A stretch of 64,000 bases of DNA from contig CALKUP010000001.1 of NCBI GenBank assembly GCA_937996685.1, positions 181,571 to 245,570 on the forward strand, read 5' to 3'. The notes beneath the pieces are model-generated. The model had not been told where the DNA came from. It did no database searches and was given only the letters and a program-made list of their open reading frames with translations. The position numbers and the translations under genes were made by a program. Source of the DNA: an uncultured bacterium. GTDB taxonomy: Bacteria; Patescibacteriota; Patescibacteriia; UBA9570; XYC2-FULL-38-9. Shown piece by piece: positions 18,614 to 56,080 of this stretch. Position 1 is the stretch's first letter. The number at the start of each line of letters is the position of its first letter.

Positions 18614-18756
18614 ATGAAATTTGCAATTGTGTTGATTATACGCAGTTTTTTGCTCGCGTCAATATATTGAATAGAAAAAGGGGCAAATACTACAAAGGCA
18701 CCGATGATTTTCGATGTTTGAAGTATCTACCATGAGCGAGCATCGATGCGGTGATG

Positions 18757-19452
18757 TCAGTCCGACAGCACTTTGTCGATTACCTGCTCAACCCGCTTGA
18801 GACTTGAGGCAACCTGAATGCGGTCGATGTCAGCACGGTCAACCGTGCCGAGCCAGGCCATGACTCGCAAGAGCCATGTGACCGGATACCACATCCGGCC
18901 GACCAGGATGATCGGCTTGTCACGATGCCCATTTACCGCCTGCACATGCTGCAGGAAGTAGGCGACTTCGAGCAAGCTGCCGATGCCGCCCCCCAAGACC
19001 ACGAACGCTGCGCAGAGCTGGAGCATCAGCTCCAGGCGCGAGCCGAAGTCGGGTGCGTGCAGGGTCTCGTCCAGGTGTGGATTCGCGGGCTCGTGAAAGC
19101 CCAGGCAGGTGATCCGGATTCCGACAGACTTCTGCGCCGCTGCATCCCGTCGATTGTTGCAAAATGCTTCCTGGGCAAGGTCGACCATGCCTGGACAACC
19201 GCCGCTAAGCATTGATACCTGACGGCGCGCCAAGAGCTTTCCAAGTGCCTTGGCAAATACGTCACCGTAGAGCCAGTGGAGCCACGGCGCCTTGTCGGAA
19301 TCGCGGGCGCTGCCGAACACGCCGATGAACGGCGCGGCATTTTGCGCCAGCTCACGCGCCAGCGCCTTGGTGGCAGCCGCAAACTCGCCCGCCTCCCGTT
19401 CCCAGCGGACAGAGGAGGTTTCGAGAGCAGGAACGGTGTTGAGGTCGGACAT
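18757..19452 (-). CDS. LOG-family (TIGR00730) nucleotide 5'-monophosphate phosphoribohydrolase/nucleosidase-like protein, on high-GC foreign DNA
   Basis: SGGCPGMVD and VLGGGIGSLLE match the LOG GGGxGxM and PGGxGTxxE motifs; 231 aa; GC about 62% against about 46% for neighbouring genes. Confidence 0.78.
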   Translation of the reverse strand: MSDLNTVPALETSSVRWEREAGEFAAATKALARELAQNAAPFIGVFGSARDSDKAPWLHWLYGDVFAKALGKLLARRQVSMLSGGCPGMVDLAQEAFCNNRRDAAAQKSVGIRITCLGFHEPANPHLDETLHAPDFGSRLELMLQLCAAFVVLGGGIGSLLEVAYFLQHVQAVNGHRDKPIILVGRMWYPVTWLLRVMAWLGTVDRADIDRIQVASSLKRVEQVIDKVLSD

Positions 19453-19830
19453 GGTGTCTCTCCATCTCTGCTTTACTGAAAGCAGTTCTTGTTGTTGATG
19501 ATCACGCTTTCGATATCTCTATCTCAGCGCTTTTTTATCCCTGAATTCAGTATTTCAGGTGCAAAAAAGCCGCTGAGAAAGCGGCTAAGGTGTTGGTTTT
19601 TGGGGACGTTTCACCCCAGTTGCATCGACAGTCTGTTTTTGGGTGTGATATGTAGGATTGTTCATTTTTCGCAATGATTAGCAAAATGCTAGATGAAACC
19701 GGAAGAAATATAGCGTAGATTTGCGCATTTGTCAAGAATGATATTTTAGGTTACAGTCGGTGCCAGAGAAGCGTGAACACGTCCTGTGTTCAGCTGCTTT
19801 TGGACACTTCATTGACCTGCGGAGGGCGTC

Positions 19831-20253
19831 ATGAGTCAACCTATTGTCGATCGCAAGCCTGGCGACTTCAGCTTCATCTACCCGACGGGGATCATTGGTG
19901 AAGAGCTGCCTCGGTTCACCGTTGAAGACAAGGTCTTTCCCATTAAAGCGTTCTTCAACTGGGACATTGGTGCAGCCTGCGTTGCTGGCGCTCAAGGGGG
20001 CTTTCCCTTGGTGCGACCGGTTGACTACGAAGCTGCTGTCGCTGAGTGGCATCGTCGGTTTCCCGGGAAGGCATTGCCGCGGACCTTTGCGGAGCTCGCT
20101 GTTCTTCGTGGTGAGTCTGGTGATCACCGCTGGGGCTTGGCGCGGACACTTCGGAGGAGCGAGGAGAACAAGTCCGTCGGACCACGGAAACCCTCCGGAA
20201 CCGCGCTGCAGCGTTGCAGTTGTAGCGACGAATCGCGACCCTGCATGGAGTGA
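19831..20253 (+). CDS. hypothetical protein (high-GC island), preceded by a GGAGGG ribosome-binding site
   Basis: 140 aa; strong SD 5 nt upstream; a rho-independent terminator follows at 20283-20319. Confidence 0.5.
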   Translation: MSQPIVDRKPGDFSFIYPTGIIGEELPRFTVEDKVFPIKAFFNWDIGAACVAGAQGGFPLVRPVDYEAAVAEWHRRFPGKALPRTFAELAVLRGESGDHRWGLARTLRRSEENKSVGPRKPSGTALQRCSCSDESRPCME

Positions 20254-20282
20254 CCCCGTCTTTACGGATCAAGTCGTTTCGT

Positions 20283-20319
20283 ACCCTGTTTGTTTCGTAC
20301 ACAAGCAGGGTCTTTTTTT
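20283..20319 (+). terminator. rho-independent terminator (ACCCTG...CAGGGT followed by T7)
   Basis: 6-bp GC-rich stem, 17-nt loop and a TTTTTTT tract, directly after the 19831-20253 CDS. Confidence 0.6.
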
Positions 20320-20429
20320 ATCCAATAGATTTTTCAAATAAAAAAAGCCTCACAAATGATTCTATATACGGACTACAAATAGGCTATATATAGAGGTTCG
20401 TGAGGTGCGCCTCTCCGCACAGAGAAGCG

Positions 20430-20687
20430 CTACTTGGTGGCGAGAGGGTCTTCGGCGACCCGCACAATTTCGCAGGCCGCGCTGCCGTCGATCACACAGC
20501 GACCGCGGTTGTTATCTCGCATGAAGTCATCGCCCAATCGCCGAGCGGGTATGTCCCCGTGCTCCGCGAGCTGCCACAGGGCCTCGTGCGCCTGCAGTCC
20601 GAGAGCTGCAGGGTTAAGGAGTCGGACCACAGCCCCAGGGAACTGCTGCCGTGCTTGCCAGACAAGCATGCTCTGATTTTCAGACAT
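20430..20687 (-). CDS. hypothetical small protein (85 aa, high-GC island)
   Basis: GGAGG 5 nt upstream of the ATG (MSENQS...). The ORF track extends further to 20711, but the RBS supports the shorter start. Confidence 0.45.
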   Translation of the reverse strand: MSENQSMLVWQARQQFPGAVVRLLNPAALGLQAHEALWQLAEHGDIPARRLGDDFMRDNNRGRCVIDGSAACEIVRVAEDPLATK

Positions 20688-20835
20688 CTTTCCTCCAAAT
20701 TTGTCCGCCACAGTCGTAGCATACTATGTACTCCCTGGCAAGATAATACCTCTCTTTCAAGTGGATAGCTCCATTGGTTGCAGAGCTCTGGATTTTGACG
20801 TATTCTCAATACAATTCATTATTGAGCTTCTTTTT

Positions 20836-25151: not shown

Positions 25152-26696
25152 ATGAAACAGACTCAAGCTACAAAAATCACAAAAGGACTCCGCCGCATTC
25201 CAGCGGTGATGGCAACGCAACATCCGGATAACGCAAATGCACCATATTGGGAAGTGGACGGAGATGGGTTTATTAGCGCACAAGAAGAAGTGCGTGAAGC
25301 GTTTTCTGCCTATAGTGATCTCGGCGTTGATGAGTATATGTGGGATTGGGAAGGAAAATATGTTGATGAAGCGGTGGTTGAGCGACTGTTTTCTGAATAC
25401 ACGGAATTTTTTCAACAGCATGTGTTGGGGCGTGATCGATTTTTGACATTCCGTATTCCAAACATTTGGGAAGAAAAAGGATATTCGCTGGCGCGCGCAT
25501 TTATGGGAATGCTGACCGCCGCGGACATGGCCCATGATTTGAAGATGCCGGCATATCCGTTATTTGAAGTGATTTTGCCGATGACAAAAAATCCAGAGCA
25601 GTTAATGTATTTGCATGATACGTTTCAAAAGCTCGCGAAAGTGAAGCACGAGCTTTTTGCTGGAGACACAGCTGATTTTGACCATATTGAAATGATCCCG
25701 CTAACAGAAAGTGTTCCGGAAATGTTGAATATCCGCGGGTTTTTAGAATCATATGAGCAGTCATATAAAAAAGCGTTTAAAAAACAATTGCGTTATTTGC
25801 GGCCATTTATTGCACGCTCAGATCCAGCGCTTGTTTCAGGAATGCTCGCTGCGGTGATTGGCAATAAAGTGGCGCTTTCTGAAATGGCGCGTTGGTCAAA
25901 AAAATCTGGCGTGCCAATCTATCCAATTATTGGAGCGGGGAGCTTGCCGTTTCGAGGAGGGCTGTCGCCGGAGTATATCGATCAATTTATTAATGAATAC
26001 CAAGGGGTTCGAACTGTGACAATCCAGTCCGCGTTTCGATATGACTATCCATTAAAAACAGTGCGTCGCGCGTTGAAAAAATTACAACAAGAATTACCAA
26101 GCAGTACTCCTCGACTGATTGATGAAGCATCGCTCGCGGTGTTGGGAGTCATTGCCGAGCGGAGTGCGAAATTGTATCGCAAGACAATTGCGGGTATCGC
26201 AGATGATGTGTTGTCACTTTCCAAACATGTTCCGCGAAGACGTGAGCGCAAACTCCATATTGGATTATTAAAATACGGCCGGTCTGTTGCTGGAAAAGAA
26301 TTTCCACGAGCAATTACATTTACAGCGACGCTCTATAGCTTGGGAGTTCCGCCGGAATTGATTGCCGCGGGCCGCACAATTGCAATGTTGTCTGATGCAG
26401 AAAAAGCGGTGTTTGAAAAAACATATATCCATTTTAAAGATGACATGATTCGAGCGGGTCGTTATTTGAATACAGAAAATGTGTTACGGTTGTCCGCGGA
26501 AAATGCTGTGTGGGAACAGATACATGCGGATATTGTTGCGCTTGAAGCCTATCTTGGCGTGACTTTAGGGCCAAAAACAACGACAGAATTACTGCATCGG
26601 AACGCGACATCGGATGTGTATTTACTGATGCAGAAAAATCTACCCATTGCTGACGTATTGCTGCGCGCTGCCACTTTGCGACAATCTCTCGGGTAA
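25152..26696 (+). CDS. phosphoenolpyruvate carboxylase, archaeal-type (PpcA family)
   Basis: About 514 aa, N-terminal IPAVMATQHPDNA signature of archaeal-type PEPC. Confidence 0.75.
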   Translation: MKQTQATKITKGLRRIPAVMATQHPDNANAPYWEVDGDGFISAQEEVREAFSAYSDLGVDEYMWDWEGKYVDEAVVERLFSEYTEFFQQHVLGRDRFLTFRIPNIWEEKGYSLARAFMGMLTAADMAHDLKMPAYPLFEVILPMTKNPEQLMYLHDTFQKLAKVKHELFAGDTADFDHIEMIPLTESVPEMLNIRGFLESYEQSYKKAFKKQLRYLRPFIARSDPALVSGMLAAVIGNKVALSEMARWSKKSGVPIYPIIGAGSLPFRGGLSPEYIDQFINEYQGVRTVTIQSAFRYDYPLKTVRRALKKLQQELPSSTPRLIDEASLAVLGVIAERSAKLYRKTIAGIADDVLSLSKHVPRRRERKLHIGLLKYGRSVAGKEFPRAITFTATLYSLGVPPELIAAGRTIAMLSDAEKAVFEKTYIHFKDDMIRAGRYLNTENVLRLSAENAVWEQIHADIVALEAYLGVTLGPKTTTELLHRNATSDVYLLMQKNLPIADVLLRAATLRQSLG

Positions 26697-30165: not shown

Positions 30166-31362
30166 ATGAGTCTATTTGGAAACGATCAAACAAAAAGTTA
30201 CGCTGGCGTTGATATTGGTAATTCAGCAGTAAAAGTCGTGGAATTACAGCCAATTCAAGGCCGTCCAAAGCTTCTGACCTACGGGTACTTGGAGCAAGAT
30301 AATGAAATTATTCGCACAGATTCGCCGGCAGCCCGCGCGAGCATTACAGCGGCACTGACGTCGGTGTTTGAAAGTAGTCATGTTCGAACACGCGAAGTTG
30401 TTGCGTCATTGCCGAGCTATGCTGTCTTTACTTCAATTATTCATCTGCCAAAAATGAATAAAAAAGAGTTAACAGAGGCTGTGCAATGGGAAGCGAAAAA
30501 GTTTGTACCATTACCACTTTCTGAAATGGTGCTCGATTGGAAAATTTTAGATGAAAATGCATTTCGTTCGAGTTATGTCAGCTCAACCGGGGATCATGCA
30601 CCGCAATCGCCAGTCGCTCCAAGTCCAATGGCTGCGGCGACAAGTGCATTGAATCGTCAGGCGGTGATTGAATCAAAAGAGCAATCATTCTATAAAATTT
30701 TATTGACTGCAGCGCCAAAAGATTTGGTGACACGGTATGTTGAAATTTTTAAAGCCGCAAAATTAAAACTGGTTGGGATTGAAACCGAAAGTTTTGCAGC
30801 AGAACGCGCGTTGATTGGCAATGATCCAAACCCGGTGATGATTATTGATATGGGTGCGGTCGCGACAAATTTTAGTATTGTGGTTGATGGTGTGCCGATT
30901 ATCCATCGTAGTATTGATATTGCCGGAAATACGATTACAAAAGCGATTGCAAATAGCATGAATCTTCCGGTTGATCAGGCAGAGCAATTCAAACGTGATT
31001 TTGGATTAACGGCGCAACCGATTCAAGGCGGGGGAGATGCGACAGGTGTTGCAGTGCCGCGACACATTGAAGCGCTGCTCGCTGCGGTGATGAACGAAAT
31101 TCAGTATGTATTGAATTTGTATCAAAGTCAGACAAACGGACCGATTGAAAAAATTGTCTTAACAGGCGGTTCATCATGGCTGCCACACATTGTTGAATAT
31201 ATGCGTGAGCGTTTACAAGCGAAGGTATTTATTGGTGATCCGTGGGCGCATATCATGTACCCAGAGCCGTTACGGGATGTATTGGTGCAAGTAGGGCCGC
31301 GTTTATCAGTGGCAATCGGTCTTGGAATGCGACCAATTGTCCCAAGTTCGACGGTGCGGTAA
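30166..31362 (+). CDS. pilM: type IV pilus assembly ATPase-like protein PilM
   Basis: Actin-like fold, N-terminal GVDIGNSAVKVVEL; 398 aa with an inserted low-complexity region. Confidence 0.78.
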   Translation: MSLFGNDQTKSYAGVDIGNSAVKVVELQPIQGRPKLLTYGYLEQDNEIIRTDSPAARASITAALTSVFESSHVRTREVVASLPSYAVFTSIIHLPKMNKKELTEAVQWEAKKFVPLPLSEMVLDWKILDENAFRSSYVSSTGDHAPQSPVAPSPMAAATSALNRQAVIESKEQSFYKILLTAAPKDLVTRYVEIFKAAKLKLVGIETESFAAERALIGNDPNPVMIIDMGAVATNFSIVVDGVPIIHRSIDIAGNTITKAIANSMNLPVDQAEQFKRDFGLTAQPIQGGGDATGVAVPRHIEALLAAVMNEIQYVLNLYQSQTNGPIEKIVLTGGSSWLPHIVEYMRERLQAKVFIGDPWAHIMYPEPLRDVLVQVGPRLSVAIGLGMRPIVPSSTVR

Positions 31363-31422
31363 GGATTGATTAAATGGCACAATTCTTCTATACTAGGCAA
31401 TAGATTAATTATCACTGTATAT

Positions 31423-31923
31423 ATGAATAAAAAAGGCTTTACTCTCGTTGAACTACTGATTGTGATCGGCATTATCGCGCTTCTTTCTATTTTAGTGCTC
31501 GCATCATTAAACACAACGCACCAACGTTCTCGTGACACAAAACGAATCACAGACGTGAAGCAAGTGCAGCTGGCAATGGAAATGTATTGGAATGACAATG
31601 CAAATTATCCAGCAGTGACTCCTGGCCAAACAACCTGGAAATCTTTTGGGGATGAGTTGAGTTCAGGATTTGTCAGTTTTCCAGTTGATGACGTGCAAGG
31701 TCGTGTATATACATATATCGTAAACCCAGAAAATACAGACCAATATTTTTTAGCAGCAACGTTAGAAAAAAAAACGCATGAAAGTTTAGCTGCTGATGTT
31801 GACGGGTTTGTTGGAAGTAATTGGGTGATGGTCAATTCAGAAGGAAAATCAGAAACAGTCCCAGCTGGAGGTTTTGATTGTGGGGATCCTGTCTATTGCG
31901 TTGCTGGCGACGCCACAAAATAA
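31423..31923 (+). CDS. type IV pilin / pseudopilin (prepilin with a class III signal peptide)
   Basis: MNKKG|FTLVELLIVIGII N-terminal methylation/cleavage motif; start moved to the internal ATG. Confidence 0.75.
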   Translation: MNKKGFTLVELLIVIGIIALLSILVLASLNTTHQRSRDTKRITDVKQVQLAMEMYWNDNANYPAVTPGQTTWKSFGDELSSGFVSFPVDDVQGRVYTYIVNPENTDQYFLAATLEKKTHESLAADVDGFVGSNWVMVNSEGKSETVPAGGFDCGDPVYCVAGDATK

Positions 31924-31926
31924 GTC

Positions 31927-32780: not shown

Positions 32781-35750
<2,970 letters not shown>

Positions 35751-35768
35751 TTATATAGACTGCTGCAT

Positions 35769-36743: not shown

Positions 36744-36752
36744 GCCTTCGCG

Positions 36753-37639: not shown

Positions 37640-37670
37640 TTGACATTTCATGAAAAAATAAGTATCATAC
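37640..37670 (+). promoter_or_regulatory. putative sigma70-type promoter (TTGACA-17-TATCAT) upstream of the high-GC gene
   Basis: ttgacatttcatgaaaaaataagtatcat; the downstream 5' region contains a perfect 13-bp inverted repeat. Confidence 0.3.
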
Positions 37671-37714
37671 TTCGTCATACCTTTGGGTGTGATGCACCTT
37701 TTACAACAAAACAT

Positions 37715-37771
37715 GTTGATTCAGGAATTGAGCGCAAAACAGTGTGTTTTGTATTCACTTCCTGAATCAAC
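37715..37771. repeat. perfect 13-bp inverted repeat GTTGATTCAGGAA / TTCCTGAATCAAC with a 31-nt spacer
   Basis: Read directly from the sequence; lies in the AT-rich leader upstream of the 37962 high-GC gene. Confidence 0.7.
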
Positions 37772-37961
37772 AAGGAATTCGGCTGAAGCAGGCATATTCA
37801 TACAAAGAAGATAGCGCAGGCAAAAATGCCAGAAGTCGCGACCCTTCAACAGAGATGCACGAAACCGTGTGTCGTATGAATGCTTCAAATAGATGTCCAG
37901 CGGGTTTGCTGGGTGTCTATTGCTGAATGGTCTATCAAAGACCAAAAAAATGGAGTTTCCC

Positions 37962-38828: not shown

Positions 38829-38928
38829 TTCCCGGCCCCGAGACGGGCTGAAGTAACGCGTCACCTGACGCAACAACGGTCCGTCCCACCTGAGCACACT
38901 TTCTGTAAAAAGATTGTTGTGCTCGGAC

Positions 38929-38970
38929 CGTTTCTTGAGCAGATAACAGCTGTTGTGTCTTCAAGAAACG
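38929..38970. repeat. perfect 10-bp inverted repeat CGTTTCTTGA / TCAAGAAACG with a 22-nt spacer that contains an ACAGCTGT palindrome
   Basis: Read directly from the sequence; about 100 nt downstream of the high-GC gene. Confidence 0.7.
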
Positions 38971-39079
38971 TGAATCATGTCTAGCGTTTAGTAGACAAAA
39001 AGTCTTGTGGTGTAGAGATATGGCAGGATATAATTCTTCCATGACTAATAAAGCGGCATACATATAATCGATACAATAT

Positions 39080-39433: not shown

Positions 39434-39484
39434 TGTTTTTATATATGAAATATAATGAAATTTTCAAAAATATAGTACACGCAT

Positions 39485-41995: not shown

Positions 41996-42055
41996 AAATC
42001 AGCAGAGGAGTAAGGCGCTTGCTCCAGTAGTAAAAAATTGGTAGTCTGGAATAGT

Positions 42056-42373: not shown

Positions 42374-43821
42374 ACCTACAAACAATGACACTCCAAGAGC
42401 TGCGCACCGCGCTCGATGCAAAACAGATTTCGGCGCTTGATGTGACAAATAGTTATTTGGCGCAGATTGAAGAAACAAATCCGACGTTGAATAGTTTTAT
42501 TACAGTAACAGCAGAGCATGCTCGTGCTCGCGCAGCGCACGCGCAAAAAGAAATCGATGCCGGCAACAGTGGTCCGTTTACAGGCATTCCGTATGTCGCA
42601 AAAGATTTGTTCGCCACTCGTGGCATTTTAACAACCGCCGCTTCAGACGTGCTTGCAGAATATATTCCGCCATATAATGCGACCGTGATTGAAGATTTGG
42701 TTGACGCACCAATGCTCGGAAAAGCGAATATGGATGAATATGCAATGGGAACAACGGGTGAGTATTCGGCTTTTGGGCCAACAAAAAATCCATATGATCT
42801 CGCGCGTGTGTCGGGTGGCAGTTCATCTGGCTCAGCGGCCTCAGTTGCAAGCGGGCAAACCCCGTGGTCACTCGGAACCGATACTGGTGGCAGTATTCGA
42901 TTACCAGCCGGCTTTACACACACAGTTGGATTTAAACCGACGTACGGAACCTATTCACGGTACGGTGCGATCGCAATGGCGAGTTCGCTTGATACAGTCG
43001 GAACGTTTACGCGGACAGTTGAAGATGCGGCGTATCTGCTGGAACATCTTGCACACCGCGATCCGCTGGACACAACATCACGCGAAACAGTGAATCAGCA
43101 AGGGTTAACCGAGCGTGTGCGACAGGCTGATATCAGAGGCATGAAGTTTGGAGTGCCTCGAGAATTTATGGAATTAGAAGGGATGCAACCAGCTGTGAAA
43201 GAAGCATTCATGCACGCTATTGAAAAAATTACCGCAGCAGGAGGGGAGATTGTGGAGATTTCATTGCCGCACGCAGAATATGCAATTAATGCATATTATA
43301 TTTTAGCGCCATCCGAAGTGAGTAGTAACATGGCGCGATATGATGGCTTGCAATTTGGATCTCGTGCACTTGGAAATTCAATTGACGAGGTGATGATGAA
43401 CGCGCGCGCAAAATTTGGCGCTGAAGTGCAACGTCGTATTTTAATCGGAACATACACGCTCTCTGGAGAGTTTGATGAAAGTTTGTATCACATCGCATCA
43501 AAAGTGCGCACCTTAATCATCAATGATTTTGCAGCTGCAATGACGCAAGTCGACGCAATTATTTGTCCGAGTAGTCCAAGTATCCCATTTGCGTTGGGTG
43601 AAAATGCCAATGACCCACTCGCAATGTGGTTGCTTGATATCTTTACTGTTCCGATGAATCTTGCTGGCGTTCCAGCAGTGACAATTCCGGGACCGCTCGC
43701 ACATGGATTACCAGCCGGCATTCAATGTATTGGTGCGTATGGACGAGACGAGCAAACATTAGTGGCGGCAGCAGCAATGGAAAAGGTCTTGATGAGTACA
43801 TCTCCAGTTCTTGCGGTGTAA
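42370..43821 (+). CDS. gatA: Asp-tRNA(Asn)/Glu-tRNA(Gln) amidotransferase subunit A (amidase signature family)
   Basis: Amidase signature GGSSSGSAASVA; 483 aa. Confidence 0.9.
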   Translation: MNLQTMTLQELRTALDAKQISALDVTNSYLAQIEETNPTLNSFITVTAEHARARAAHAQKEIDAGNSGPFTGIPYVAKDLFATRGILTTAASDVLAEYIPPYNATVIEDLVDAPMLGKANMDEYAMGTTGEYSAFGPTKNPYDLARVSGGSSSGSAASVASGQTPWSLGTDTGGSIRLPAGFTHTVGFKPTYGTYSRYGAIAMASSLDTVGTFTRTVEDAAYLLEHLAHRDPLDTTSRETVNQQGLTERVRQADIRGMKFGVPREFMELEGMQPAVKEAFMHAIEKITAAGGEIVEISLPHAEYAINAYYILAPSEVSSNMARYDGLQFGSRALGNSIDEVMMNARAKFGAEVQRRILIGTYTLSGEFDESLYHIASKVRTLIINDFAAAMTQVDAIICPSSPSIPFALGENANDPLAMWLLDIFTVPMNLAGVPAVTIPGPLAHGLPAGIQCIGAYGRDEQTLVAAAAMEKVLMSTSPVLAV

Positions 43822-43877
43822 GGCGAGTTGGACGATAAAACGATTTCATGGTATAGTGCAGATAATAATATTGATAT

Positions 43878-44255
43878 ATGTCACAAGAAAAACAAACAGT
43901 ATTGCTCGTGGAGGACGACGAGATGCTTCACAACATGTATACCCAGAAATTCACAAAAGAAGGGTATGCGGTTCTTTCAGGGTACACTGGTTCAGAAGGC
44001 ATTCAACTTGCTGAAGAAAAACAGCCAGACATTATTTTGCTTGATATCATCATGCCAAAGATGGATGGTTTTGCCGCATTGAAGAAATTGAAAAAAAACG
44101 CTGCTACAAAAAATATTCCGGTGATCTTGCTGACGAACCTTGGTCAAGAAGAGGATATTCAAAAGGGGAAAGAATTGGGCGCGATTGATTATTTCATTAA
44201 AGCCAACCACACTCCTCAAGAAGTTGTTGATAAGGTGAAATCCGTCCTCTCATAA
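43878..44255 (+). CDS. stand-alone response-regulator receiver (CheY-like) domain protein
   Basis: LLVEDDEM...DIILLDIIMPKMDGF...K acid pocket; 125 aa with no output domain. Confidence 0.75.
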   Translation: MSQEKQTVLLVEDDEMLHNMYTQKFTKEGYAVLSGYTGSEGIQLAEEKQPDIILLDIIMPKMDGFAALKKLKKNAATKNIPVILLTNLGQEEDIQKGKELGAIDYFIKANHTPQEVVDKVKSVLS

Positions 44256-44279
44256 GAGATAGAGCGTCACACACAGTCT

Positions 44280-44306
44280 GAGCCCTTGATCGGGCTCGTT
44301 TTTTTT
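44280..44306 (+). terminator. rho-independent terminator (GAGCCC...GGGCTC followed by T8)
   Basis: Read directly from the sequence after the receiver gene. Confidence 0.65.
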
Positions 44307-44346
44307 GCTACAACTCACAGGTCATTTATTAACTAACTTTATTTTT

Positions 44347-44817
44347 ATGGCAATGGAACAAACTCTTATTATTGTAAAACCAGACGCGTTGCAACGAAAT
44401 CTTCTCGGTGAAATTATTCATCGTTTTGAACGCAAAGGTTTGAAGATCGTCGCATTGAAAATGGGACATATCACGGATGAAAAAGTAGCAGAACATTATT
44501 CACACCATGTTGAACGTCCGTTCTTTCCAGGCTTGAAGGCATTTATGCAAGCAGGACCAGTTGTGTTTGCTGTTCTCGAAGGTGTTGAAGCAATTGAAGC
44601 AGTTCGTATTATTGCCGGTGAAACAAAATCACGTACTGCAGACGCTGGAACAATCCGTGGTGATTTTGCGATGAGTATGCAAGCGAACATTGTGCATGCA
44701 TCTGATTCTCCAGAAAATGCTGTTGCTGAAATTGCTCGATTCTTTGCTCCGGAAGAAGTGCATGAATACAAAAAAGATTCAGATTCTTGGGTGTACTCAG
44801 AAGACGAACTTTCATAG
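44347..44817 (+). CDS. ndk: nucleoside diphosphate kinase
   Basis: MEQTLIIVKPDA, NIVHASDS (catalytic His); start moved to MAMEQT. Confidence 0.85.
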   Translation: MAMEQTLIIVKPDALQRNLLGEIIHRFERKGLKIVALKMGHITDEKVAEHYSHHVERPFFPGLKAFMQAGPVVFAVLEGVEAIEAVRIIAGETKSRTADAGTIRGDFAMSMQANIVHASDSPENAVAEIARFFAPEEVHEYKKDSDSWVYSEDELS

Positions 44818-44945
44818 TTGATTTGGCTTAGGGTGGTTGTCTCTCAAAAACCCGCTCGCGTTGCTCGCTGGCAGCCAAGCTGCTAATTGGTTTTGAGTAG
44901 ACAATACACCCTCCGCCCACCATCTCTATGCAGTGAGTAATCAAT

Positions 44946-45572
44946 ATGCAGAATATTTTTTTAGTTTATATTGGAAGGGATCAAAAAGATGTCCAGGCAT
45001 ACGAGTGTGTATTGTCTTTTTCGCAGCTGACAGTTGAAGAGGCGAGCGGTCGTCAGTTTGACGCCGATGATTTTGTTATTATTACAAGTGGAACAACACC
45101 GTATCACGCAGCAGCAGAAGATCCGGAAATGCAAAGCGTTATTGCGATGTTGCGTAAGCTCTCAAAGAGTCACACGAAGACGCTTGCAATTGGCGTTGGG
45201 ATGTCAGCGCTCGCACTGGCGTTTGACGGGGAAGTGGAAGATCATAGTGAGCGCGCAGAAGCAGGAGTTGTTGAAATTCATCGGCTCGCGCCAGCAGAAG
45301 GGGACGCGGTATTTGGTGATATTCCAGAAACGTTTTCGGCTGTTGCGTATCGGCACGATGACATTATGCAATTACCCATTGAGTTTGTGCCGCTGGCAAA
45401 TTCAAAGATGGCGCAATTTCATGCAATCAAACTCGCTGGGAAACCAGTCTATGGATTGCAGTTTGATCCGTTGTTGTCAGTAGCGCATGAGAATCTTTCT
45501 GTTGTTGATCACGTAACAATTCAACAGATGCTTGTCGATTTGTCACTCCCGGTGAAAAATGTGGATAACTAA
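44946..45572 (+). CDS. hypothetical protein, possibly a degenerate class-I glutamine amidotransferase-like fold
   Basis: A GVGMSALA loop sits where the GATase1 nucleophile elbow is expected (no Cys), and a YGLQFDP His/Glu-like C-terminal region follows; weak. Confidence 0.3.
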   Translation: MQNIFLVYIGRDQKDVQAYECVLSFSQLTVEEASGRQFDADDFVIITSGTTPYHAAAEDPEMQSVIAMLRKLSKSHTKTLAIGVGMSALALAFDGEVEDHSERAEAGVVEIHRLAPAEGDAVFGDIPETFSAVAYRHDDIMQLPIEFVPLANSKMAQFHAIKLAGKPVYGLQFDPLLSVAHENLSVVDHVTIQQMLVDLSLPVKNVDN

Positions 45573-45785
45573 GGGGTTTACACGATAATCGTTATTGTGT
45601 AGTATTAGCGCAGTTAATAATCTTTTTATGAAATCAGTCAAACAATCAGTACATCAATTTTGTTTGAACCTCCTCGTGGTGGCTGATTTTATCGTGTATC
45701 CGTTTGTTGCCATTATTACACGTTGGAACACTCGGGCGCATTTACTGAAAGTATAAGATTATAGAAATTTTATAAGGAATCAGTA

Positions 45786-45818
45786 AACGCCCGAGGAGAA
45801 ATCCCCGGGCGTTTTGAT
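45786..45818 (+). terminator. hairpin AACGCCCG...CGGGCGTT followed by TTTG (weak terminator/attenuator)
   Basis: 8-bp stem. The middle arm can alternatively pair with an upstream CTCGGGCG at about 45745. Confidence 0.4.
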
Positions 45819-46037
45819 TAACAGATGATTATCAAGAGGAGGAAAGTGGTAATTATCTGAGAATCAACAGCATTCTCAGCGCACCTTTTGACAATCTAGC
45901 AACGCACAACAGTGTACTCAATTGACCTATTGAATTGAGCTGTGGTGAGAAGAGACGATGACGTGTTTGTTCGCTCTTTTCACCCCGGCTCTTCAATAGA
46001 GCCATTGCCGCGACGAAAGTCGCATTAGGAGGGACAC

Positions 46038-46382
46038 ATGTCCCACACGTCCGCGCCTGCAGCCTACACGACCGAGAACGCTCGCGCGATTCATTACCTT
46101 CGATTGGTGTACTTGATCACCAATCATCCTAATGACTTTGCTGTTCCCGCTTGGAGGCGGGACGCAAAGCACCTCGCGAATCTCCTGAAGCGCAAGCTCC
46201 AGGCTGATGTCAGCGACCCTGAGAGCCTCCGTGTTTGGGGGTTGGGGTTCCTGGGTCACAACACGGTCGATCGGCAGTTCCTGTCGATCTCTGATCGCGC
46301 GGCTCAGCGCTTGTCTCATCCCCGGACGGAATCTCCTCGTCGCGCTCAGGGCAGCCAACGCGTCTCTCTCGCTGATTGCTGA
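46038..46382 (+). CDS. hypothetical protein (114 aa) on a high-GC island, with a GGAGGG ribosome-binding site
   Basis: SD 5 nt upstream of the ATG; the antisense ORF 45993-46436 was rejected. Followed by two hairpins (CGGAGACC/GGTCTCCG and GGCAAC/GTTGCC plus a T-tract). Confidence 0.45.
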   Translation: MSHTSAPAAYTTENARAIHYLRLVYLITNHPNDFAVPAWRRDAKHLANLLKRKLQADVSDPESLRVWGLGFLGHNTVDRQFLSISDRAAQRLSHPRTESPRRAQGSQRVSLADC

Positions 46383-46597
46383 CCTCTCCTCGGAGACCTT
46401 CGGCTTCAACCCCGCGGGTCTCCGGCATGGCAACACCTTTGTGCGTTGCCCATTTTCCGATGAACATAAATTTTGTGTTTATCGGTTGAGTGAAAAATTA
46501 TGTCTATACAATTCCGTTCAATTCAATCTATTGCAAGCCTCATTATTCTTTTGTGGCAGGATTTGTAGTGGATTGATTCTTTTATCAGCATACTGCA

Positions 46598-46626: not shown

Positions 46627-46709
46627 TGCTCTTTTTATGTCCGCGCCACTTCCTGATGTGTGATGTATTGGTTGATAGTTGCCAATATATTTCACCTTAG
46701 GAGGATCAG

Positions 46710-46901
46710 ATGGACAACGCGTCTGTAAACGCTCTCACTGTCGCTACTTCTCAAGAGGATGGCGATGCTTCCCTGGATGTCGTCGATCCGCAGTCAGAGG
46801 AGACTTCTTCTCGTACTGTGCACTCCGATTGTGTGTGGGAGGGCGTGCATCGGCCGCTTCCGACTCATCAACCGCGTTGGTGGGGAGAGTGGGCATTCTA
46901 A
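46710..46901 (+). CDS. small acidic hypothetical protein (63 aa), candidate precursor-like peptide
   Basis: AGGAGGA 6 nt upstream; high GC; rich in Asp, Glu, Ser and Thr (TSQEDGDASLDVVDPQSEETSSRT) with a Trp-rich C-terminus (RWWGEWAF). Confidence 0.4.
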   Translation: MDNASVNALTVATSQEDGDASLDVVDPQSEETSSRTVHSDCVWEGVHRPLPTHQPRWWGEWAF

Positions 46902-47492
46902 CGACTAAAATAAAAAAGTCGTTGCATTGAGATGTGCATTTCTGTGTTGCATCTCAATTTTTCTTAGTATGAATAGATTGAAATCCTTTGCTGTCGTTTA
47001 AAATATTTTTTGAACACAGAAAAAGAGGCAAGAAGATGAAACGGGAAGTGGTGTGACAGAGGGTCACGATTTCTGTGTTTCTTCTTCTTGCGGCGGAGGC
47101 GGGGACTCCTGCTGGGAGTCAGTCGGCCAGACCAGCTCGTACGGGTCGTACATGGCATTTCCTTGGCTTGTTATGGCCACCCGGCTCCTCGACGGAGAAG
47201 CACGGAACTCCTGGGACAACAATTTATCCAAGAGGTCCCGCACTTCTCAACGTCTATATCAAAGAACAAGATTCAAAAAAACCGCTCAAGTGGCGGGTTG
47301 ATGATCTATTTGCGAGAACAATCAATTAACCCACCAGCGTGTGTGCAAAAAAGAATCCAAAAAAGAAGGATTGATCTGTGACACGTGTTGTGTGTAAGTG
47401 ATTATTCATACGTACAAATAGAATAGCAAACCATGAAAAATCGTCAAGACGAGCAAGGGATTGTCTGCAATAGGCTGATATCAGCAGAAAAT

Positions 47493-47523
47493 TGACAGAC
47501 AGCTGATTTTTGTTATAGTGATT
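47493..47523 (+). promoter_or_regulatory. sigma70-type promoter TTGACA-16-TATAGT
   Basis: ttgacagacagctgatttttgttatagt; drives an approximately 110-nt transcript that ends at the 47615-47641 terminator. Confidence 0.4.
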
Positions 47524-47614
47524 GCGTTATGAATATCTGCCTCTCATTTTTAAAGAAAGATAAGAAGATGAACCCTTTGCGTGGGTAATGTTTGACAGTG
47601 TCTAAAAACATTTC

Positions 47615-47641
47615 AAACTCCCCACGTCGGGGAGTTTTTTT
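47615..47641 (+). terminator. rho-independent terminator (CAAACTCCCC ACGT GGGGAGTTTG-like stem followed by T7)
   Basis: Near-perfect 9-bp stem, 4-nt loop, long T tract; 40 nt upstream of the 518-aa gene. Confidence 0.7.
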
Positions 47642-47683
47642 ATAACAGACAATTGGTTTTCCGTGTGTGGATAAGAGAGGAAT

Positions 47684-49240
47684 ATGTACACACGGGCAAT
47701 CAAGCCTGACAATCACGTTCTCCTGGGGGAGATCATGACGTCCTTTGATAGCTCTGGTTCTACTGCAACTGTTGCCCTGGCTAAAAATGAAGGCATTGAC
47801 TGGGGTGAATTTAAGCCCCGAAGCCTCGACGAGGTCGCGAAGTTGCTCGGCATTCCGCTGAGTCGCGTGCTCCTCTGTCACCAGTTCGTGAACCATGATC
47901 CGGCGTGGATCATTCGTGAAGCGGACCTTGATGCGTACTTGGTGCGCATGGGCGCGGTTTGGACGCATGGTTTCTGTAGGGGGCAGGTGCTGACAACGCC
48001 GATGCTCCCGGGTGTCGTGCAAGATCATCTGCGCCCCCTTGGCTTCGCTTGTCGGCTCATCGAGAGCGATCGACCTGACTCGAGTCTGCGTCACGGCGAT
48101 GCTTTCCGGTTTGCCGGACACGACAGTGCTCTTGTTCAAGGCTGGGCAGATGACAATCGTGTCCTGCTGGCCAGCTTGGTCAGCCGAGACATGTCTGCAA
48201 GTGGTTTGTCCCGCATTACGCGCGGGGTGAGTCTCATGGTCAACTCCAAGCCGGAAATGCGCCGCGGCGCTGAAAAGTTTGGATTTCGGATGGCACCTGG
48301 TGGTGTCGTTCGGACGCTCGCTGACTGCGAGCGCGTCTGGAGTACTTGCTCCGGTGGCCGCGACGGTGAGGCAGACGGCTTCACCATGTGGTTGAAGGCT
48401 GACGGGAGTGGCTCGGACTTCGTCATTCGAGTGCGTAACCGTTTAGAGCTTCACGTTGCCTGCTTGGAGATGGTCAAGCGCGTGCTCGAGGGTCACGCAA
48501 CCTTGCCGTCTCAATGCAGAAGAGAAGTGAACGGAACTGTAATTCGCGGTTGGCGGGACGTACTTGAACGTGAAGGCCCCTTGCCAGAGGGCTTGGGATT
48601 TCCGATCCCGTTTGTCCTTGAAACGGATGCGACCGTGCTCGGCGAATTAGTCGCTAGCATCTGCTGGCAGGCGTTGATCTGTCTAGACGGTACGACCCGT
48701 GTTGTTGGGCACTCGGATCAGATCTTGTCGCCCGACGGATCGGAATGGTGGGGTTCCAAGCGCTCCTCGCTTGAACTTCCACCAGACTTCCGTGATCAGG
48801 CCGAACGGCTCGTGAAGTGGTATCGCCACTGCGGCTACACCGGCTTCATCGGGCCGGACGCGATCATCGTTCGTAATCGTGAGACCCAGGAACTCCAGAC
48901 GATCTGGATCGACCCGAACGGTCGGGCAGCCATGAGCACGACGGCTTTCATGGTTAGCAACGCGCTGTTTGACGGCGAGGGTGGGTGGATCAACACCAAC
49001 CTCACTTTGAGTGAGCCGCTGCAGAACTACACCCAGCTCCGCCAGCTCATCGGCGGAACGCTCCTCGACCCCGGCGGGGAAGACGGCGTTCAGGGTGTGG
49101 TTCTCGCGACCCGCACTGAGCCGGGCGAGCCCAGTCCGGTTCTCAAGCTGTGGTTCGGAAGTCGAGACGGCAACGGACTCGCGGCCTGCGAGGCGATGCT
49201 CGCCAAGCTCCAAGTCCGTGGAGTCAAGATCGGCAGCTAA
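47684..49240 (+). CDS. hypothetical protein with an ATP-grasp-like C-terminal half (high-GC island)
   Basis: 518 aa. The C-terminal GFIGPDAIIVRNRETQELQTIWIDPNGRAAMSTTAFMV parallels the ATP-grasp Mg/ATP-binding region (compare carB FNIQF...VIELNLRASRS in this window). The N-terminal approximately 200 aa are unassigned. RBS-like AGAGGAA upstream. Confidence 0.45.
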   Translation: MYTRAIKPDNHVLLGEIMTSFDSSGSTATVALAKNEGIDWGEFKPRSLDEVAKLLGIPLSRVLLCHQFVNHDPAWIIREADLDAYLVRMGAVWTHGFCRGQVLTTPMLPGVVQDHLRPLGFACRLIESDRPDSSLRHGDAFRFAGHDSALVQGWADDNRVLLASLVSRDMSASGLSRITRGVSLMVNSKPEMRRGAEKFGFRMAPGGVVRTLADCERVWSTCSGGRDGEADGFTMWLKADGSGSDFVIRVRNRLELHVACLEMVKRVLEGHATLPSQCRREVNGTVIRGWRDVLEREGPLPEGLGFPIPFVLETDATVLGELVASICWQALICLDGTTRVVGHSDQILSPDGSEWWGSKRSSLELPPDFRDQAERLVKWYRHCGYTGFIGPDAIIVRNRETQELQTIWIDPNGRAAMSTTAFMVSNALFDGEGGWINTNLTLSEPLQNYTQLRQLIGGTLLDPGGEDGVQGVVLATRTEPGEPSPVLKLWFGSRDGNGLAACEAMLAKLQVRGVKIGS

Positions 49241-49358
49241 GTCTGTCGCATAGATGCGTTCACAAAACGTAACCGTGTAGACTTACTGTTGATTGGGGTG
49301 ATTGTGTATAACTCTCACCCCTTTTTATTTATTGTAATCAATACCGCTTTCGCGCAAA

Positions 49359-53564: not shown

Positions 53565-53570
53565 GTATAT

Positions 53571-53704: not shown

Positions 53705-54454
53705 ATGAAAATCCTGACAGTCAATATTTGGAATGGGGGCAGAATCTGGGATTCGTTGATTCCATTTATTCAAAAACTACAACCAGACATCATCTTCATG
53801 CAAGAAGTATTTGACTCTCCCCGTGAAGATGTCGAACAACGCTTCCGCTCAACGCAAGGGATCAGAGATACGCTGAAATATCCCTATGATCATTTTACTC
53901 CAGCGTTTATTAACGCAGTAGAGGTCGGTGATGTAGTAGAAGGCTTGATGATTCTTTCAAAATTTCCGATTGTTGAAAATGATACGTTCTATCTATATGG
54001 TGAGTATGGAAGAAGAGATTTGCAAACACCAGACGGATTTAGGTCGACTCCGCGTATTTTACAGCATGCTGTTGTTGAGTATGAAAACAAGAAATTACAT
54101 CTATATAACATTCACGGGATATGGGACGAGCATGGCGACGACACACCATTGCGCTTAGAAATGGCAAAAGATATCTTGTCATATATCGATGATGCTGAAT
54201 ATGTAATTTTAGGTGGGGACTTTAATGTACAACCAGACACAAAAACAATTCGCATGATAGAAAGCACATTTACTAATGTGCTACGAGGAGAAACGGAAAC
54301 GACGTTTAATATGAAACGAAAAGAAAACCTCGCTTTTGGAAAAGCGATCGCCGACATGTTTTTTGTAAGTAATAATGTGACTGTAACGGAAAAAACAGTG
54401 CACCATGTAGACGTATCAGATCATTTGCCGTTATCGATTGAGGTTGAGCTATGA
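53705..54454 (+). CDS. endonuclease/exonuclease/phosphatase (EEP) family protein
   Basis: MKILTVNIWNG...IIFMQEV N-terminal EEP motif and C-terminal DHLPL; start moved to the ATG after the TATACT box. Confidence 0.7.
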   Translation: MKILTVNIWNGGRIWDSLIPFIQKLQPDIIFMQEVFDSPREDVEQRFRSTQGIRDTLKYPYDHFTPAFINAVEVGDVVEGLMILSKFPIVENDTFYLYGEYGRRDLQTPDGFRSTPRILQHAVVEYENKKLHLYNIHGIWDEHGDDTPLRLEMAKDILSYIDDAEYVILGGDFNVQPDTKTIRMIESTFTNVLRGETETTFNMKRKENLAFGKAIADMFFVSNNVTVTEKTVHHVDVSDHLPLSIEVEL

Positions 54455-54490
54455 AAGAACTAATTAGTGGAATTGCGATTGTGCTGACAT

Positions 54491-54841
54491 TTGCGAGATA
54501 CGATCAAAGGTAAAACACGACCGCATATATACACGTGGTTTGTTTGGGGCTTGGTGCCATTTATTATATTTGCGCTACAAGTGAGCGATAATGCTGGTGC
54601 GGGGTCGTATGTAACACTTGCTGCTGGAGTAGTGTGTATGATTATTTTCAGACTTGGCCTGCGTCAAGGTAAAAAAGACATCACGTTCATAGACACCGCT
54701 TTATTTATTTCATCATTTATTGCTCTTGAACGATACACCATTATTACGGCCGCCTTCCCAGTAACCTGGACAATCGCGAATACATTTTTTGTTCTCTTTC
54801 TTGTGCTACGACGAATGCAGTTGAAGTTGATAAAGAAATAA
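54491..54841 (+). CDS. hypothetical small membrane protein
   Basis: 116 aa, 3 predicted TM segments. Confidence 0.35.
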   Translation: MRDTIKGKTRPHIYTWFVWGLVPFIIFALQVSDNAGAGSYVTLAAGVVCMIIFRLGLRQGKKDITFIDTALFISSFIALERYTIITAAFPVTWTIANTFFVLFLVLRRMQLKLIKK

Positions 54842-55079
54842 CCTCAATTCCACAATTTGTTTGATGCAGATATTTGACGTTGACTTTATTTTATACGGGT
54901 GATACGTTATTGTGTCGCTGATTCTTTTAATTCAGTGCTCTTTTTATCGATCGTTGAGGAAATAAGTCGCTTTCAATATGTGTAAAGGCGTTTTATTCCC
55001 TCAGCGGTCATTCATCGTTATCAATGAGATCAAGTCACATTAATCGTTTGCTGAGGGGCATGCGATTTTGGGAGGATTC

Positions 55080-55484
55080 ATGGAAGACGGACAGTTCGGA
55101 ACTCCTCGTGAACATGCAACGTTCATGGGCATCACCATGGGCTACTGGATCTTCATCATCGCGCTTCTCCTCGGAGGCAGCGCGGTGGTGATGGTGACCA
55201 AGCCGGTCTTCCTCGGCTTCGAGCGGGAGATCTATACCAACTCACGTCAGTACACCGATGCGAAGGACGTGCAACTCCTCGCCTGGATCGCCGAGTACTC
55301 GGAGCTCGTCACGGAGAAGGCGAGGCTCGAGGCGCAGACGGACGTCGACAACACGACTGTGATTGACGGCATCGACAGCCAGATGCACTTCATGCTCGGT
55401 CGTATCCATGCCGAGGCTGCTCGCGTGTCTCCCGAAGCGCTTTCTTCCACGGTTCGCGAATTCCTCGCGCGCCACAATCTCTGA
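55080..55484 (+). CDS. hypothetical membrane-anchored protein (high-GC island), with a GGGAGGA ribosome-binding site
   Basis: 134 aa from MEDGQF; one TM helix (ITMGYWIFIIALLLGGSAVVMV); acidic C-terminal domain. Confidence 0.5.
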   Translation: MEDGQFGTPREHATFMGITMGYWIFIIALLLGGSAVVMVTKPVFLGFEREIYTNSRQYTDAKDVQLLAWIAEYSELVTEKARLEAQTDVDNTTVIDGIDSQMHFMLGRIHAEAARVSPEALSSTVREFLARHNL

Positions 55485-55495
55485 AGGAGGTGAAC

Positions 55496-56080
55496 ATGAA
55501 CAAGGCTTTCCTTCGTTTGGCAGCGCTGCTCCTGATGGCGTTGCTGTTCTTCACTGGCACTGGTTGCGACCAAAGCTCGGAAGAGCGCGACCGCGCAGTC
55601 GTTCAAGACCAGCAGAAGCAGTATGGAATTGCGCAGCCGATCCCGAGCTATGATTGGTCCCCGGAACGGGACAACGTGATCCAGCTCTACGACATCCGTA
55701 TGGGAATTGTCGCCACCCACGCCGTTTGGCGAGGCGACACGTCGATCGTTGAAGGCGACTGTCCGGCGATCGGATATCCGATTCCGTACGACACCCAGCT
55801 CACCAACCCGCTGCAAGTGCTGCCTGACAGTGGCCACGAGGTGGTTGAGCAGGCGGAACCGAACGGCTTGTTCTCTTCAAAAAACAGCACGGGCACGTGG
55901 GTGCTGTGTGTTGAGGGCAAGGCAATCGAACCTGTCCTTGTCGAGGGCAAGGTGACGACCTACCCGTATCCGGTGGTTGTCGATTACACAACCAATCGAG
56001 TCACCCGTGCCGTTGGAGGTCGCTCTTCGGTCAAGTTGAAGGTCAATGACAAGCCGCCTTCTCAGCGGAGCAAGCCTTGA
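55496..56080 (+). CDS. hypothetical lipoprotein (high-GC island), with an AAGGAGGTG ribosome-binding site
   Basis: Signal peptide with lipobox LFFTGTGC; 194 aa. Confidence 0.5.
   Translation: MNKAFLRLAALLLMALLFFTGTGCDQSSEERDRAVVQDQQKQYGIAQPIPSYDWSPERDNVIQLYDIRMGIVATHAVWRGDTSIVEGDCPAIGYPIPYDTQLTNPLQVLPDSGHEVVEQAEPNGLFSSKNSTGTWVLCVEGKAIEPVLVEGKVTTYPYPVVVDYTTNRVTRAVGGRSSVKLKVNDKPPSQRSKP

Follow-up and report, generated by a model that had tools for sequence, protein, structure and literature searches.

The 64-kb window analysed here (the whole stretch, positions 181,571 to 245,570 of contig CALKUP010000001.1) carries ten GC-rich open reading frames (ORFs) at four loci among native genes of a different composition. 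Together with the non-coding regions around them, most of these ORFs, referred to below as cassettes or cargo, occupy sites named slots 1 to 5 (Table 1). An initial annotation had described them as five foreign cassettes. Here we consider their composition and signals, and a comparison with related genomes in which the coding parts of two slots differ between conserved flanks. The host is likely to be a Kerfeldbacteria-like member of Patescibacteria, since the best named matches of its SHMT come from Candidatus Kerfeldbacteria (67-70% identity; 65-70% when other Patescibacteria are included). Thus the initial guess of a Patescibacteria host holds on the evidence of named SHMT relatives.

The mean GC content of the window is 45.9%. 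The 200-nt windows with GC of at least 0.56 are located at 18801-19500, 19901-20300, 20401-20700, 37901-38900, 46001-46400, 46701-46900, 47801-49300 and 55101-56000, confirming GC peaks in the regions first claimed to be cassettes. The ten cassette ORFs (all rows with a protein length in Table 1, the ATP-grasp ORF being taken from 47684) have GC 0.56-0.67 and GC content in third codon positions (GC3) 0.53-0.84, on average 0.69. In the 49 native ORFs the corresponding values are 0.38-0.50 and 0.26-0.49, with mean GC3 of 0.39 (Mann-Whitney p = 8e-7 for GC3). The non-coding DNA around the cassette ORFs has GC 0.35-0.45, similar to the remaining genome. This bears out two initial claims, that the foreign composition is restricted to the ORFs and that the intergenic DNA around them is AT-rich. 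Other claims need correction. The five regions comprise about ten ORFs in four loci, including 46710-46901 and, tentatively, 47064-47243 on the minus strand. Similarly, the ORFs are indeed GC-rich, but with the range of 56-67% rather than a uniform 60-67%, and in the cassette region 55080-56080 the second gene begins at 55496.

The translation signals of cassette and native genes are also different. The Shine-Dalgarno (SD) box, scored as a 4-nt core at positions -20..-4, precedes all nine scored cassette ORFs (47064-47243(-) was left out of the count) and only one of 39 native genes starting with ATG; the frequency at random positions is 8%. A TAnnnT box within positions -18..-3 is present in 18 of the 39 native genes and in none of the nine cassette ORFs, compared to 11% of random positions. 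As this box is of the -10 type and ends a few bases ahead of the ATG, the native genes are likely to be leaderless and devoid of SD boxes. Thus the absence of SD in native genes, noted initially, is confirmed, and there is no sign that native genes of the window often reach 65% GC and carry an SD. The claim of a canonical GGAGG box before every cassette gene is correct insofar as all nine scored ORFs have an SD core, but the ORF at 37962 has only GGAG.

The cassettes differ from the native genes at the protein level too. The ratio R/(R+K) is 0.75 in cassette proteins and 0.51 in native ones, GC content in second codon positions is 0.47 and 0.39, respectively, and residues F, Y, M, I, N and K are scarcer in the former. 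Since the amino acid usage is also shifted, the GC-richness of the cassettes is probably old and caused by long GC pressure, not by recent synonymous drift.

The main evidence for exchange comes from contig CAZBLE010000001.1 (L004), whose GatA is 93% identical to that of the window. The two are collinear in the region 33279-46502 of the window with 80-85% DNA identity, cassettes excepted. The upstream region of slot 2 (37518-37961) and positions 4422-4865 of L004, 444 nt long, are 88.5% identical through GGAGTTTCCC-ATG. Directly past the ATG the alignment is lost, and the first ORFs, of 288 and 226 amino acids (aa), are unrelated. An 8-nt identity ACCGTGAC, encoding (K/R)TVT, is observed about 20 nt past the ATG in these unrelated ORFs (37962-37995 in the window, 4866-4896 in L004). 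It could be due to chance, or the true junction could lie a few codons inside the ORF.

Slot 2 of L004 contains three co-oriented GC-rich ORFs, cassettes A, B and C (226, 83 and 87 aa). Cassettes A and B are each closed by a complete copy of the ~150-nt element found behind the slot 2 ORF of the window, and cassette C ends in hairpins 2 and 3 only. This element folds into a stable series of three hairpins (-60 kcal/mol, z -4.9), and there are seven compensatory pairs among three copies. The copy in the window is a mosaic. Its hairpin 1 resembles the internal, cassette-borne copies of L004 (87%), and further downstream it agrees with the terminal copy alone. This is the outcome that integration by crossover within hairpins 2 and 3 would give. 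In a third genome, L102 (ERR8482633), the element and the next native gene are, as estimated by eye, roughly at least 95% identical to those of L004, but the cassette ORFs have only 38% protein identity. The breaks between L102 and L004 fall just past hairpin 3 and about 20 nt past the stop codon.

At slot 3, the upstream block 45573-46037 is 95% identical to its counterpart in L004, compared to only 80-85% in the adjacent coding DNA. The ORFs that follow are unrelated (114 aa in the window, 52 aa in L004), and homology restarts at the stop codon (78%). Thus whole ORFs differ between related genomes within conserved flanks, both at slots 2 and 3 (window and L004) and between L004 and L102, and the comparison with sister genomes advised in the initial annotation does reveal different GC-rich ORFs at the same sites. 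At these two sites of the window the SD box sits in a host-type leader that is 88-95% conserved beside a different sister ORF, hence the SD was not imported with the cargo. The slot 3 upstream block may itself encode a membrane peptide of 42-53 aa, starting at 45595 or 45628 and ending at 45756. A minus-strand ORF at 45993-46436 with weak similarity to HepT (E 0.027) was rejected, and the SD-led plus-strand ORF was preferred.

Past slot 3, the window and L004 diverge over 7-14 kb, where L004 has GC-rich genes of its own. Two of these, 14474-15424(+) and 15601-16797(-), encode paralogues with 31% identity and a CPDY...YTF motif that have no family match. In L099, whose SHMT is 95% identical to that of the window, other SD-led GC-rich genes adjoin the SHMT gene. 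No GC-rich islands were found within the 11-16 kb examined in L003 and L100, whose marker proteins are 74-76% identical to those of the window. In public records L004 and L003 are labelled as Gammaproteobacteria / Bdellovibrionales; these are probably mislabels, given that the window SHMT groups with Kerfeldbacteria and other Patescibacteria.

The expression signals of the slots are listed in Table 1. Near-consensus sigma-70 promoters are located 160-290 nt ahead of the cassette start codons (37640-37668, 47492-47519, 19735-19707). Slots 1, 3 and 4 have a common leader layout, in which a promoter is followed by a hairpin with a T-run and then by the SD box and ATG (19568-19735(-), 45577-45818(+), 47492-47637(+)). 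These leaders resemble those of attenuators or riboswitches. Rfam scans at gathering thresholds, covering the window and six loci, and a permissive scan restricted to 18000-57000 yielded only tRNA-Gly, with the leaders and the 3' element unmatched. Comparison of the flanks of different slots within the window (BLAST, word size 7) revealed no similarity, and repeats are confined to slot 2. The cassettes of slot 1 alternate in orientation and have their own promoters.

Table 1. Cassette ORFs and candidate expression signals in the 64-kb window
Feature	Coordinates	Strand	Composition and signals
Slot 1 cargo, predicted LOG/SLOG protein, 231 aa	18757..19452	-	GC 0.62; GC3 0.74; SD GGAGAG 6 nt ahead of ATG
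Slot 1, leader of the LOG gene	19568..19735	-	putative promoter TTGACA-17-TATATT at 19735-19707, called by consensus scan alone; hairpin with T-run 19586-19568, ~115 nt ahead of ATG
Slot 1 cargo, 140 aa, no family match	19831..20253	+	SD GGAGGG; terminator-like hairpin 20283-20311
Slot 1 cargo, 85 aa, no family match	20430..20687	-	GC3 0.70; SD GGAGGAAAG
Slot 2, promoter and leader	37640..37961	+	TTGACA-17-TATCAT at 37640-37668; ~290-nt AT-rich leader; hairpin 37714-37772; ends in GGAGTTTCCC-ATG
Slot 2 cargo, NrN-like DHH phosphodiesterase (putative), 288 aa	37962..38828	+	GC 0.67; GC3 0.84; SD only GGAG
Slot 2, 3' element, ~150 nt, three hairpins	38829..38975	+	
Slot 3, upstream block	45573..46037	+	small ORF 45628-45756; hairpin with T-run near 45790-45818; leader ends in AGGAGGGACAC-ATG
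Slot 3 cargo, 114 aa, no family match	46038..46382	+	
Slot 3, conserved 3' hairpins	46383..46502	+	GGAGACC..GGTCTCC and GGCAAC..GTTGCC
Small cassette ORF, 63 aa	46710..46901	+	SD AGGAGG; terminator-like hairpins downstream
Tentative small GC-rich ORF, 59 aa	47064..47243	-	GC3 0.68; no convincing SD; weak evidence
Slot 4, promoter and leader	47492..47683	+	TTGACA-16-TATAGT with TG at 47492-47519; hairpin with T-run 47615-47637
Slot 4 cargo, ATP-grasp ligase-like, 518 aa, or 501 aa from 47735	47684..49240	+	GC3 0.67
Slot 5 cargo 1, 134 aa, N-terminal membrane helix	55080..55484	+	GC3 0.77; SD GGGAGGA
Slot 5 cargo 2, lipoprotein, 194 aa, lipobox FTGTGC	55496..56080	+	SD AAGGAGGTGA

According to the initial annotation, none of the cassette genes except that of the LOG protein had a recognizable function. 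This does not hold for the 288-aa protein of slot 2 and for the ATP-grasp protein of slot 4. The former matches the PADLOC profile C3a116 (2.7e-36) and DHH_CorA (4e-22), and its AlphaFold2 model has pLDDT 95. The top Foldseek match is NrN with SAM-AMP (9lqa, E 7e-17, TM-score 0.66-0.75, identity 22-23%), and the top PDB matches 9lqa, 9lqb, 9lqc and 9lq9 are all NrN. Among 42 homologues the residues of the motif D104-H105-H106 are either conserved or invariant, and the window protein retains every invariant column. NrN is a DHH phosphodiesterase that degrades SAM-AMP, the messenger of type III CRISPR CorA systems (PMC10600005, PMC12255297). The slot 2 protein shares with it the fold, the DHH motif and the DHH_CorA and C3a116 matches. 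Unlike NrN, it is encoded by a solitary cassette, its identity to NrN is only 22-23%, and neither cas genes (cas10 among them) nor a CorA gene turned up in those genes of the 64-kb window that were scanned. Judging from its sequence and model, it is an NrN-like DHH phosphodiesterase with a putative function.

The product of 18757-19452 is a LOG/SLOG protein by its profile matches, in agreement with the initial assignment: PF03641 is matched with 7.8e-15 (55.7 bits with the cut-off of 27), and there are also matches to PF18306, to a PHROG and to LOG proteins from PDB (3e-12). Its motif of the GGxGTxxE type reads GGGIGSLLE. The profile of the slot 4 protein matches PGM1 and other ATP-grasp peptide ligases in PDB (1e-9), and a set of 1.84 billion proteins contains 47 representatives of it, the closest with 77% identity. 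As this homologue aligns from residue 25, the gene probably starts at 47735 and not at 47684. Thus the initially described ORF 47684-49240 is retained as a GC-rich ORF with a different probable start, and 47735-49240 is predicted to encode an ATP-grasp ligase from the kin of PGM1 and other peptide ligases. The 194-aa lipoprotein of slot 5 matches PHROG 24725 (4.5e-9) and shares 53% identity with hypothetical proteins from T5-like Vibrio phages.

Pfam and PHROGs yielded nothing for six of the ten cassette ORFs queried, and with PADLOC neither the remaining eight cassette proteins of the window that were scanned nor cassette A of L004 gave a match. Identification of the latter as a DEDD exoribonuclease is tentative, as the Pfam match is sub-threshold (E 0.004) and has no PDB support; for the same reason, the suggestion that slot 2 always holds an enzyme of the nanoRNase type is only a lead. 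Apart from the NrN family, the window cassette proteins have no paralogues or relatives in the other arrays examined. A large part of the cargo seems to belong to conflict or nucleotide-signal biology, given the NrN-like and LOG/SLOG proteins, the phage lipoprotein, and the Gad2 and Csx3 neighbours in related arrays described below.

The 288-aa protein has 130 homologues with at most 54% identity, the named ones being from Staskawiczbacteria, Daviesbacteria and Peribacteria. In Candidatus Staskawiczbacteria (L103, GCA_001820175.1), the homologue lies in an array of at least 17 kb. It consists of about 18 co-oriented ORFs, most of them with an SD core and mostly with GC3 0.58-0.78, separated by spacers with GC 0.42-0.52 that contain palindromic repeats. 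This array is directly beside SD-less native genes with GC3 0.35-0.44 encoding a DEAD helicase, a HAD hydrolase, ribosomal protein L21 and OTCase. In L107 (GCA_023246055.1, 2300-18200) the NrN homologue is one unit of an array with the toxin-antitoxin modules HicAB, PIN, YoeB and YafQ, and composite repeats of ~200 nt end with TTCGGGCA just ahead of each SD. In L024, a JGI contig, it is found beside Gad2 and two Csx3 genes, in an array of GC-rich cassettes that is also separated by repeats. Finally, in a 3.7-Mb genome with 58% GC the NrN homologue is fused to Gad2.

The spacer 3' of the NrN homologue in L024 contains a motif similar to the type III hammerhead (2459-2525), with three stems and an intact CUGAUGAG...CGAAAC core. 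It scores 24.7 bits (E 0.095), below the Rfam cut-off. The hammerhead core pattern is not enriched in the window.

Protein searches for the taxonomic origin of the cargo, also advised initially, returned matches in Patescibacteria-binned contigs and in phages, with best identities of 53-77%. By its sequence features, the cargo pool looks like a stock of GC-rich, SD-using accessory genes common to Patescibacteria arrays, other genomes and phages.

The composition, the signals, the flanks with replaced ORFs, the arrays and the contexts of homologues are direct observations. From these we infer a mechanism of recombination and a route of DNA entry, as well as the protein functions given above. 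On balance, and with moderate confidence, we favour the possibility that the ORFs are strain-variable accessory cassettes in fixed slots, swapped by recombination inside conserved non-coding flanks. Each slot would supply host-type AT-rich signals, that is, a sigma-70-type promoter, a leader of 150-290 nt with hairpins, an SD box, the ATG, and at the 3' end a terminator or structured element. The cargo would be a GC-rich ORF, from start to stop, drawn from a GC-rich, SD-using pool that also occurs in the long arrays of other Patescibacteria and, in part, in phages. The conserved flanks could then act as portable homology arms for exchange between genomes. The ~150-nt triple-hairpin element of slot 2 would let cassettes be gained, lost or replaced as units, as it follows successive cassettes. 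As a mode of exchange we favour homologous recombination after DNA uptake, because no dedicated recombinase is visible; the pilus genes of the window (PilM, prepilin peptidase and pseudopilin at 30166-32760, from Pfam) are only an indirect hint of uptake. Indeed, Pfam revealed no integrase, transposase or tyrosine/serine recombinase domain in 40 native window proteins. Competence has been proposed for Patescibacteria, and genomic islands and gene transfer, mostly between Patescibacteria, have been reported (PMC12455944).

Several points weigh against this scheme. The 5' break is at the ATG, and plain homologous recombination leaves the first capture of an unrelated ORF unexplained. The 3' elements found in the window have no sequence in common from slot to slot, so there is no genome-wide portable motif of the kind seen in T4 phages. 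The model also does not explain why a GC-rich pool exists alongside AT-rich spacers. The comparison with sister genomes covers two slots, and three related genomes were found; a scan of JGI metagenomes with GatA yielded no close relative (best 49%). The window is 64 kb of a 267-kb contig, and a recombinase may be encoded elsewhere.

It is possible, and we suggest it only tentatively, that there exists a lineage-wide cassette system of Patescibacteria, where regulated expression slots, made up of a promoter, an attenuator-like leader, SD and ATG, together with lineage-specific multi-hairpin repeats capture and swap bare GC-rich ORFs from start to stop. Such a system would be functionally analogous to integrons but use other sites, with an as yet unseen recombinase or none dedicated to it, and would hold a stock of counter-defence and nucleotide-signal genes. 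A literature search yielded no earlier description of start-to-stop replacement inside conserved host-type signals, nor of its recurrence as long Patescibacteria arrays.

In integrons, the attC sites are imperfect palindromes of 57-141 nt with the cores R''(RYYYAAC) and R'(GTTRRRY), and the integrase IntI is a tyrosine recombinase. One alternative is a similar site-specific capture, in which a recombinase encoded elsewhere would recognize the folded hairpins and insert or excise ORF-plus-element units behind the resident promoter and leader. Indeed, the layout of slot 2 is that of a strong promoter with a leader, behind which cassettes stand in tandem in one direction, every one closed by a structured repeat; the breakpoints are sharp, and the start of the first ORF coincides with the resident ATG, suggesting a defined crossover point. 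Like sedentary chromosomal integrons and clusters of attC sites lacking integrases (CALIN), the system comprises small units, mostly of unknown function, with a structured repeat in unidirectional tandem arrays behind a resident promoter; the content varies between close strains, and the related toxin-antitoxin arrays resemble sedentary integrons. However, no tyrosine or serine recombinase domain, IntI included, was seen in the scanned window proteins. The ~150-nt triple hairpin of slot 2 ends with AACGTTAAT, AACGTGAAT or AACGCTATC and, inspected by eye rather than with a covariance model, fits neither GTTRRRY nor RYYYAAC. The repeats are specific for each slot and wholly different between slots. 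Tandem co-oriented cassettes behind a resident promoter are seen at slot 2 of L004 (three cassettes) and not at slot 1, where cassettes have both orientations and their own promoters. Further differences from integrons and CALIN are slots with single cassettes scattered among housekeeping genes, long leaders, and a first ORF placed at the resident ATG. We regard integron-like capture as unlikely.

Two other known systems share features with the slots. Minimal mobile elements of Neisseria and replacement flexible genomic islets of marine bacteria contain variable genes between conserved flanks, have no mobility genes, and are presumed to spread by transformation and homologous recombination. 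Similarly, the content of slots 2 and 3 differs between conserved flanks, and no mobility genes were found in the scanned proteins. On the other hand, the flanks here are non-coding expression signals, the breaks fall at start and stop codons, and the cargo consists throughout of GC-rich genes with SD boxes, in a genome of leaderless ones. In T4-type phages, promoter/stem-loop (PeSL) cassettes drive shuffling of ORFs (PMC2839356, PMC4122927). The likeness consists in conserved promoter and stem-loop flanks around variable ORFs, short homologies for shuffling, and differences involving whole ORFs. Unlike PeSLs, the slots are located on a cellular chromosome, lack a common motif, have long leaders with an SD, and carry compositionally foreign cargo.

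Cassettes could also be accessory transcription units left by phages or plasmids infecting Patescibacteria, with the GC content and SD boxes of the element. The lipoprotein with its phage homologues and PHROG match, the PHROG match of the LOG protein, the presence of a promoter and terminator at each cassette, and the position of the NrN family in related arrays next to the typical counter-defence genes Gad2 and Csx3 are consistent with this. However, genes for structural proteins, replication or integration are absent from the surroundings of every slot. For the NrN family, 2.9 million viral contigs yielded a single weak match and 50,697 phage genomes yielded none, the ATP-grasp protein has no match in phage genomes (tblastn), and two patterns of the slot 2 element produced none in viral contigs. 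The conserved host-type leaders are not accounted for either, and so an origin as remnants is quite improbable.

The initial annotation suggested repeated direct transfer from one high-GC organism, such as an actinobacterium hosting an episymbiont. In its favour, every cassette is GC-rich with an SD-led gene, the amino acid composition of the cassettes is shifted in the same way, and the host genome does belong to Patescibacteria. But no close donor is seen, the best identities being only 53-77%; GC3 is heterogeneous (0.53-0.84); and the named homologues come from Patescibacteria or T5-like Vibrio phages, with no match pointing to Actinobacteria. Moreover, donor-type flanks are absent, the SD is a part of the resident leader, and the same pattern is observed in unrelated Patescibacteria from other habitats. 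Both parts of this suggestion, the single donor and its actinobacterial nature, thus seem highly improbable.

The chances are very slim that the ORFs are not foreign and have become GC-rich in place, by GC-biased gene conversion at hot spots or by selection on SD-led genes. The slots are recombination hot spots and the GC-richness is limited to the ORFs and not seen in spacers, but the rise of GC3 from ~0.39 to 0.7-0.84 is far above what we would expect from gene conversion, amino acid usage is shifted too, the recombining flanks are AT-rich, and ORFs of one slot come from unrelated protein families.

A chimera of assembly or binning, which the initial annotation advised checking and which the abrupt changes of composition at cassette boundaries could suggest, can practically be dismissed as far as sequence comparison allows: contigs L001 and L002 of a separate assembly (ENA ERZ650239), although thinly covered (cov 2.3 and 1.6), match 37415-39708 and 18587-19518, respectively, with 100% identity and cross both junctions of two cassettes; L004, L102 and L099, from other studies, carry the same design at the same sites; the L103 array was retrieved on 22 contigs from several samples; and the junctions fall at start and stop codons and working signals.

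Patescibacteria have tiny, streamlined genomes, and the way they gain new functions is poorly understood. In the window, gene turnover seems to be confined to precise slots, with control regions that stay with the host and coding parts that are swapped. The swapped genes stand apart as GC-rich and SD-translated ones, whereas the genome otherwise relies on leaderless mRNAs. If this is general, composition and SD presence would serve as a simple signature of the Patescibacteria accessory gene pool, and an integron-like exchange mechanism outside known integron hosts would be indicated. Candidate enzymes degrading immune signals, such as the NrN-like protein, are also brought to notice in bacteria living attached to other cells. 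Further, leaderless and SD-led initiation side by side would provide a natural test of their coexistence in one cell.

The native genes of the window include those for MurD, the pyrimidine pathway (CarAB and others), SHMT, FolD, PRPP synthetase, YchF, LigA, GatCAB, SodA and Fpg, as well as the pilus genes. The gene divergent from slot 2 encodes a TrmB/MarR-type helix-turn-helix protein and has a leaderless promoter, and a 117-aa neighbour of this slot has one other homologue only. Also adjoining slot 2 is a gene for a conserved 836-aa protein without a Pfam match (39485-41995). Its counterpart in L003 (7054-9633, 859 aa) appears by eye to have a helicase core and a sigma-like C-terminus.

A cytidine-deaminase-like gene of native composition is located at 18161-18613(-) of the window. 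The SHMT neighbourhood of L099 contains a different deaminase gene (194-670(-), PF00383), which is GC-rich and SD-led. Thus a cassette-type gene may replace a native function. A phosphoenolpyruvate carboxylase of the archaeal type is encoded at 25152-26696 (PF14010, E 3e-136). GC skew is positive in nearly all 1-kb windows of 1-64000, and the plus strand encodes about 85% of genes; the window appears to sit on one replichore with a strong gene-strand bias.

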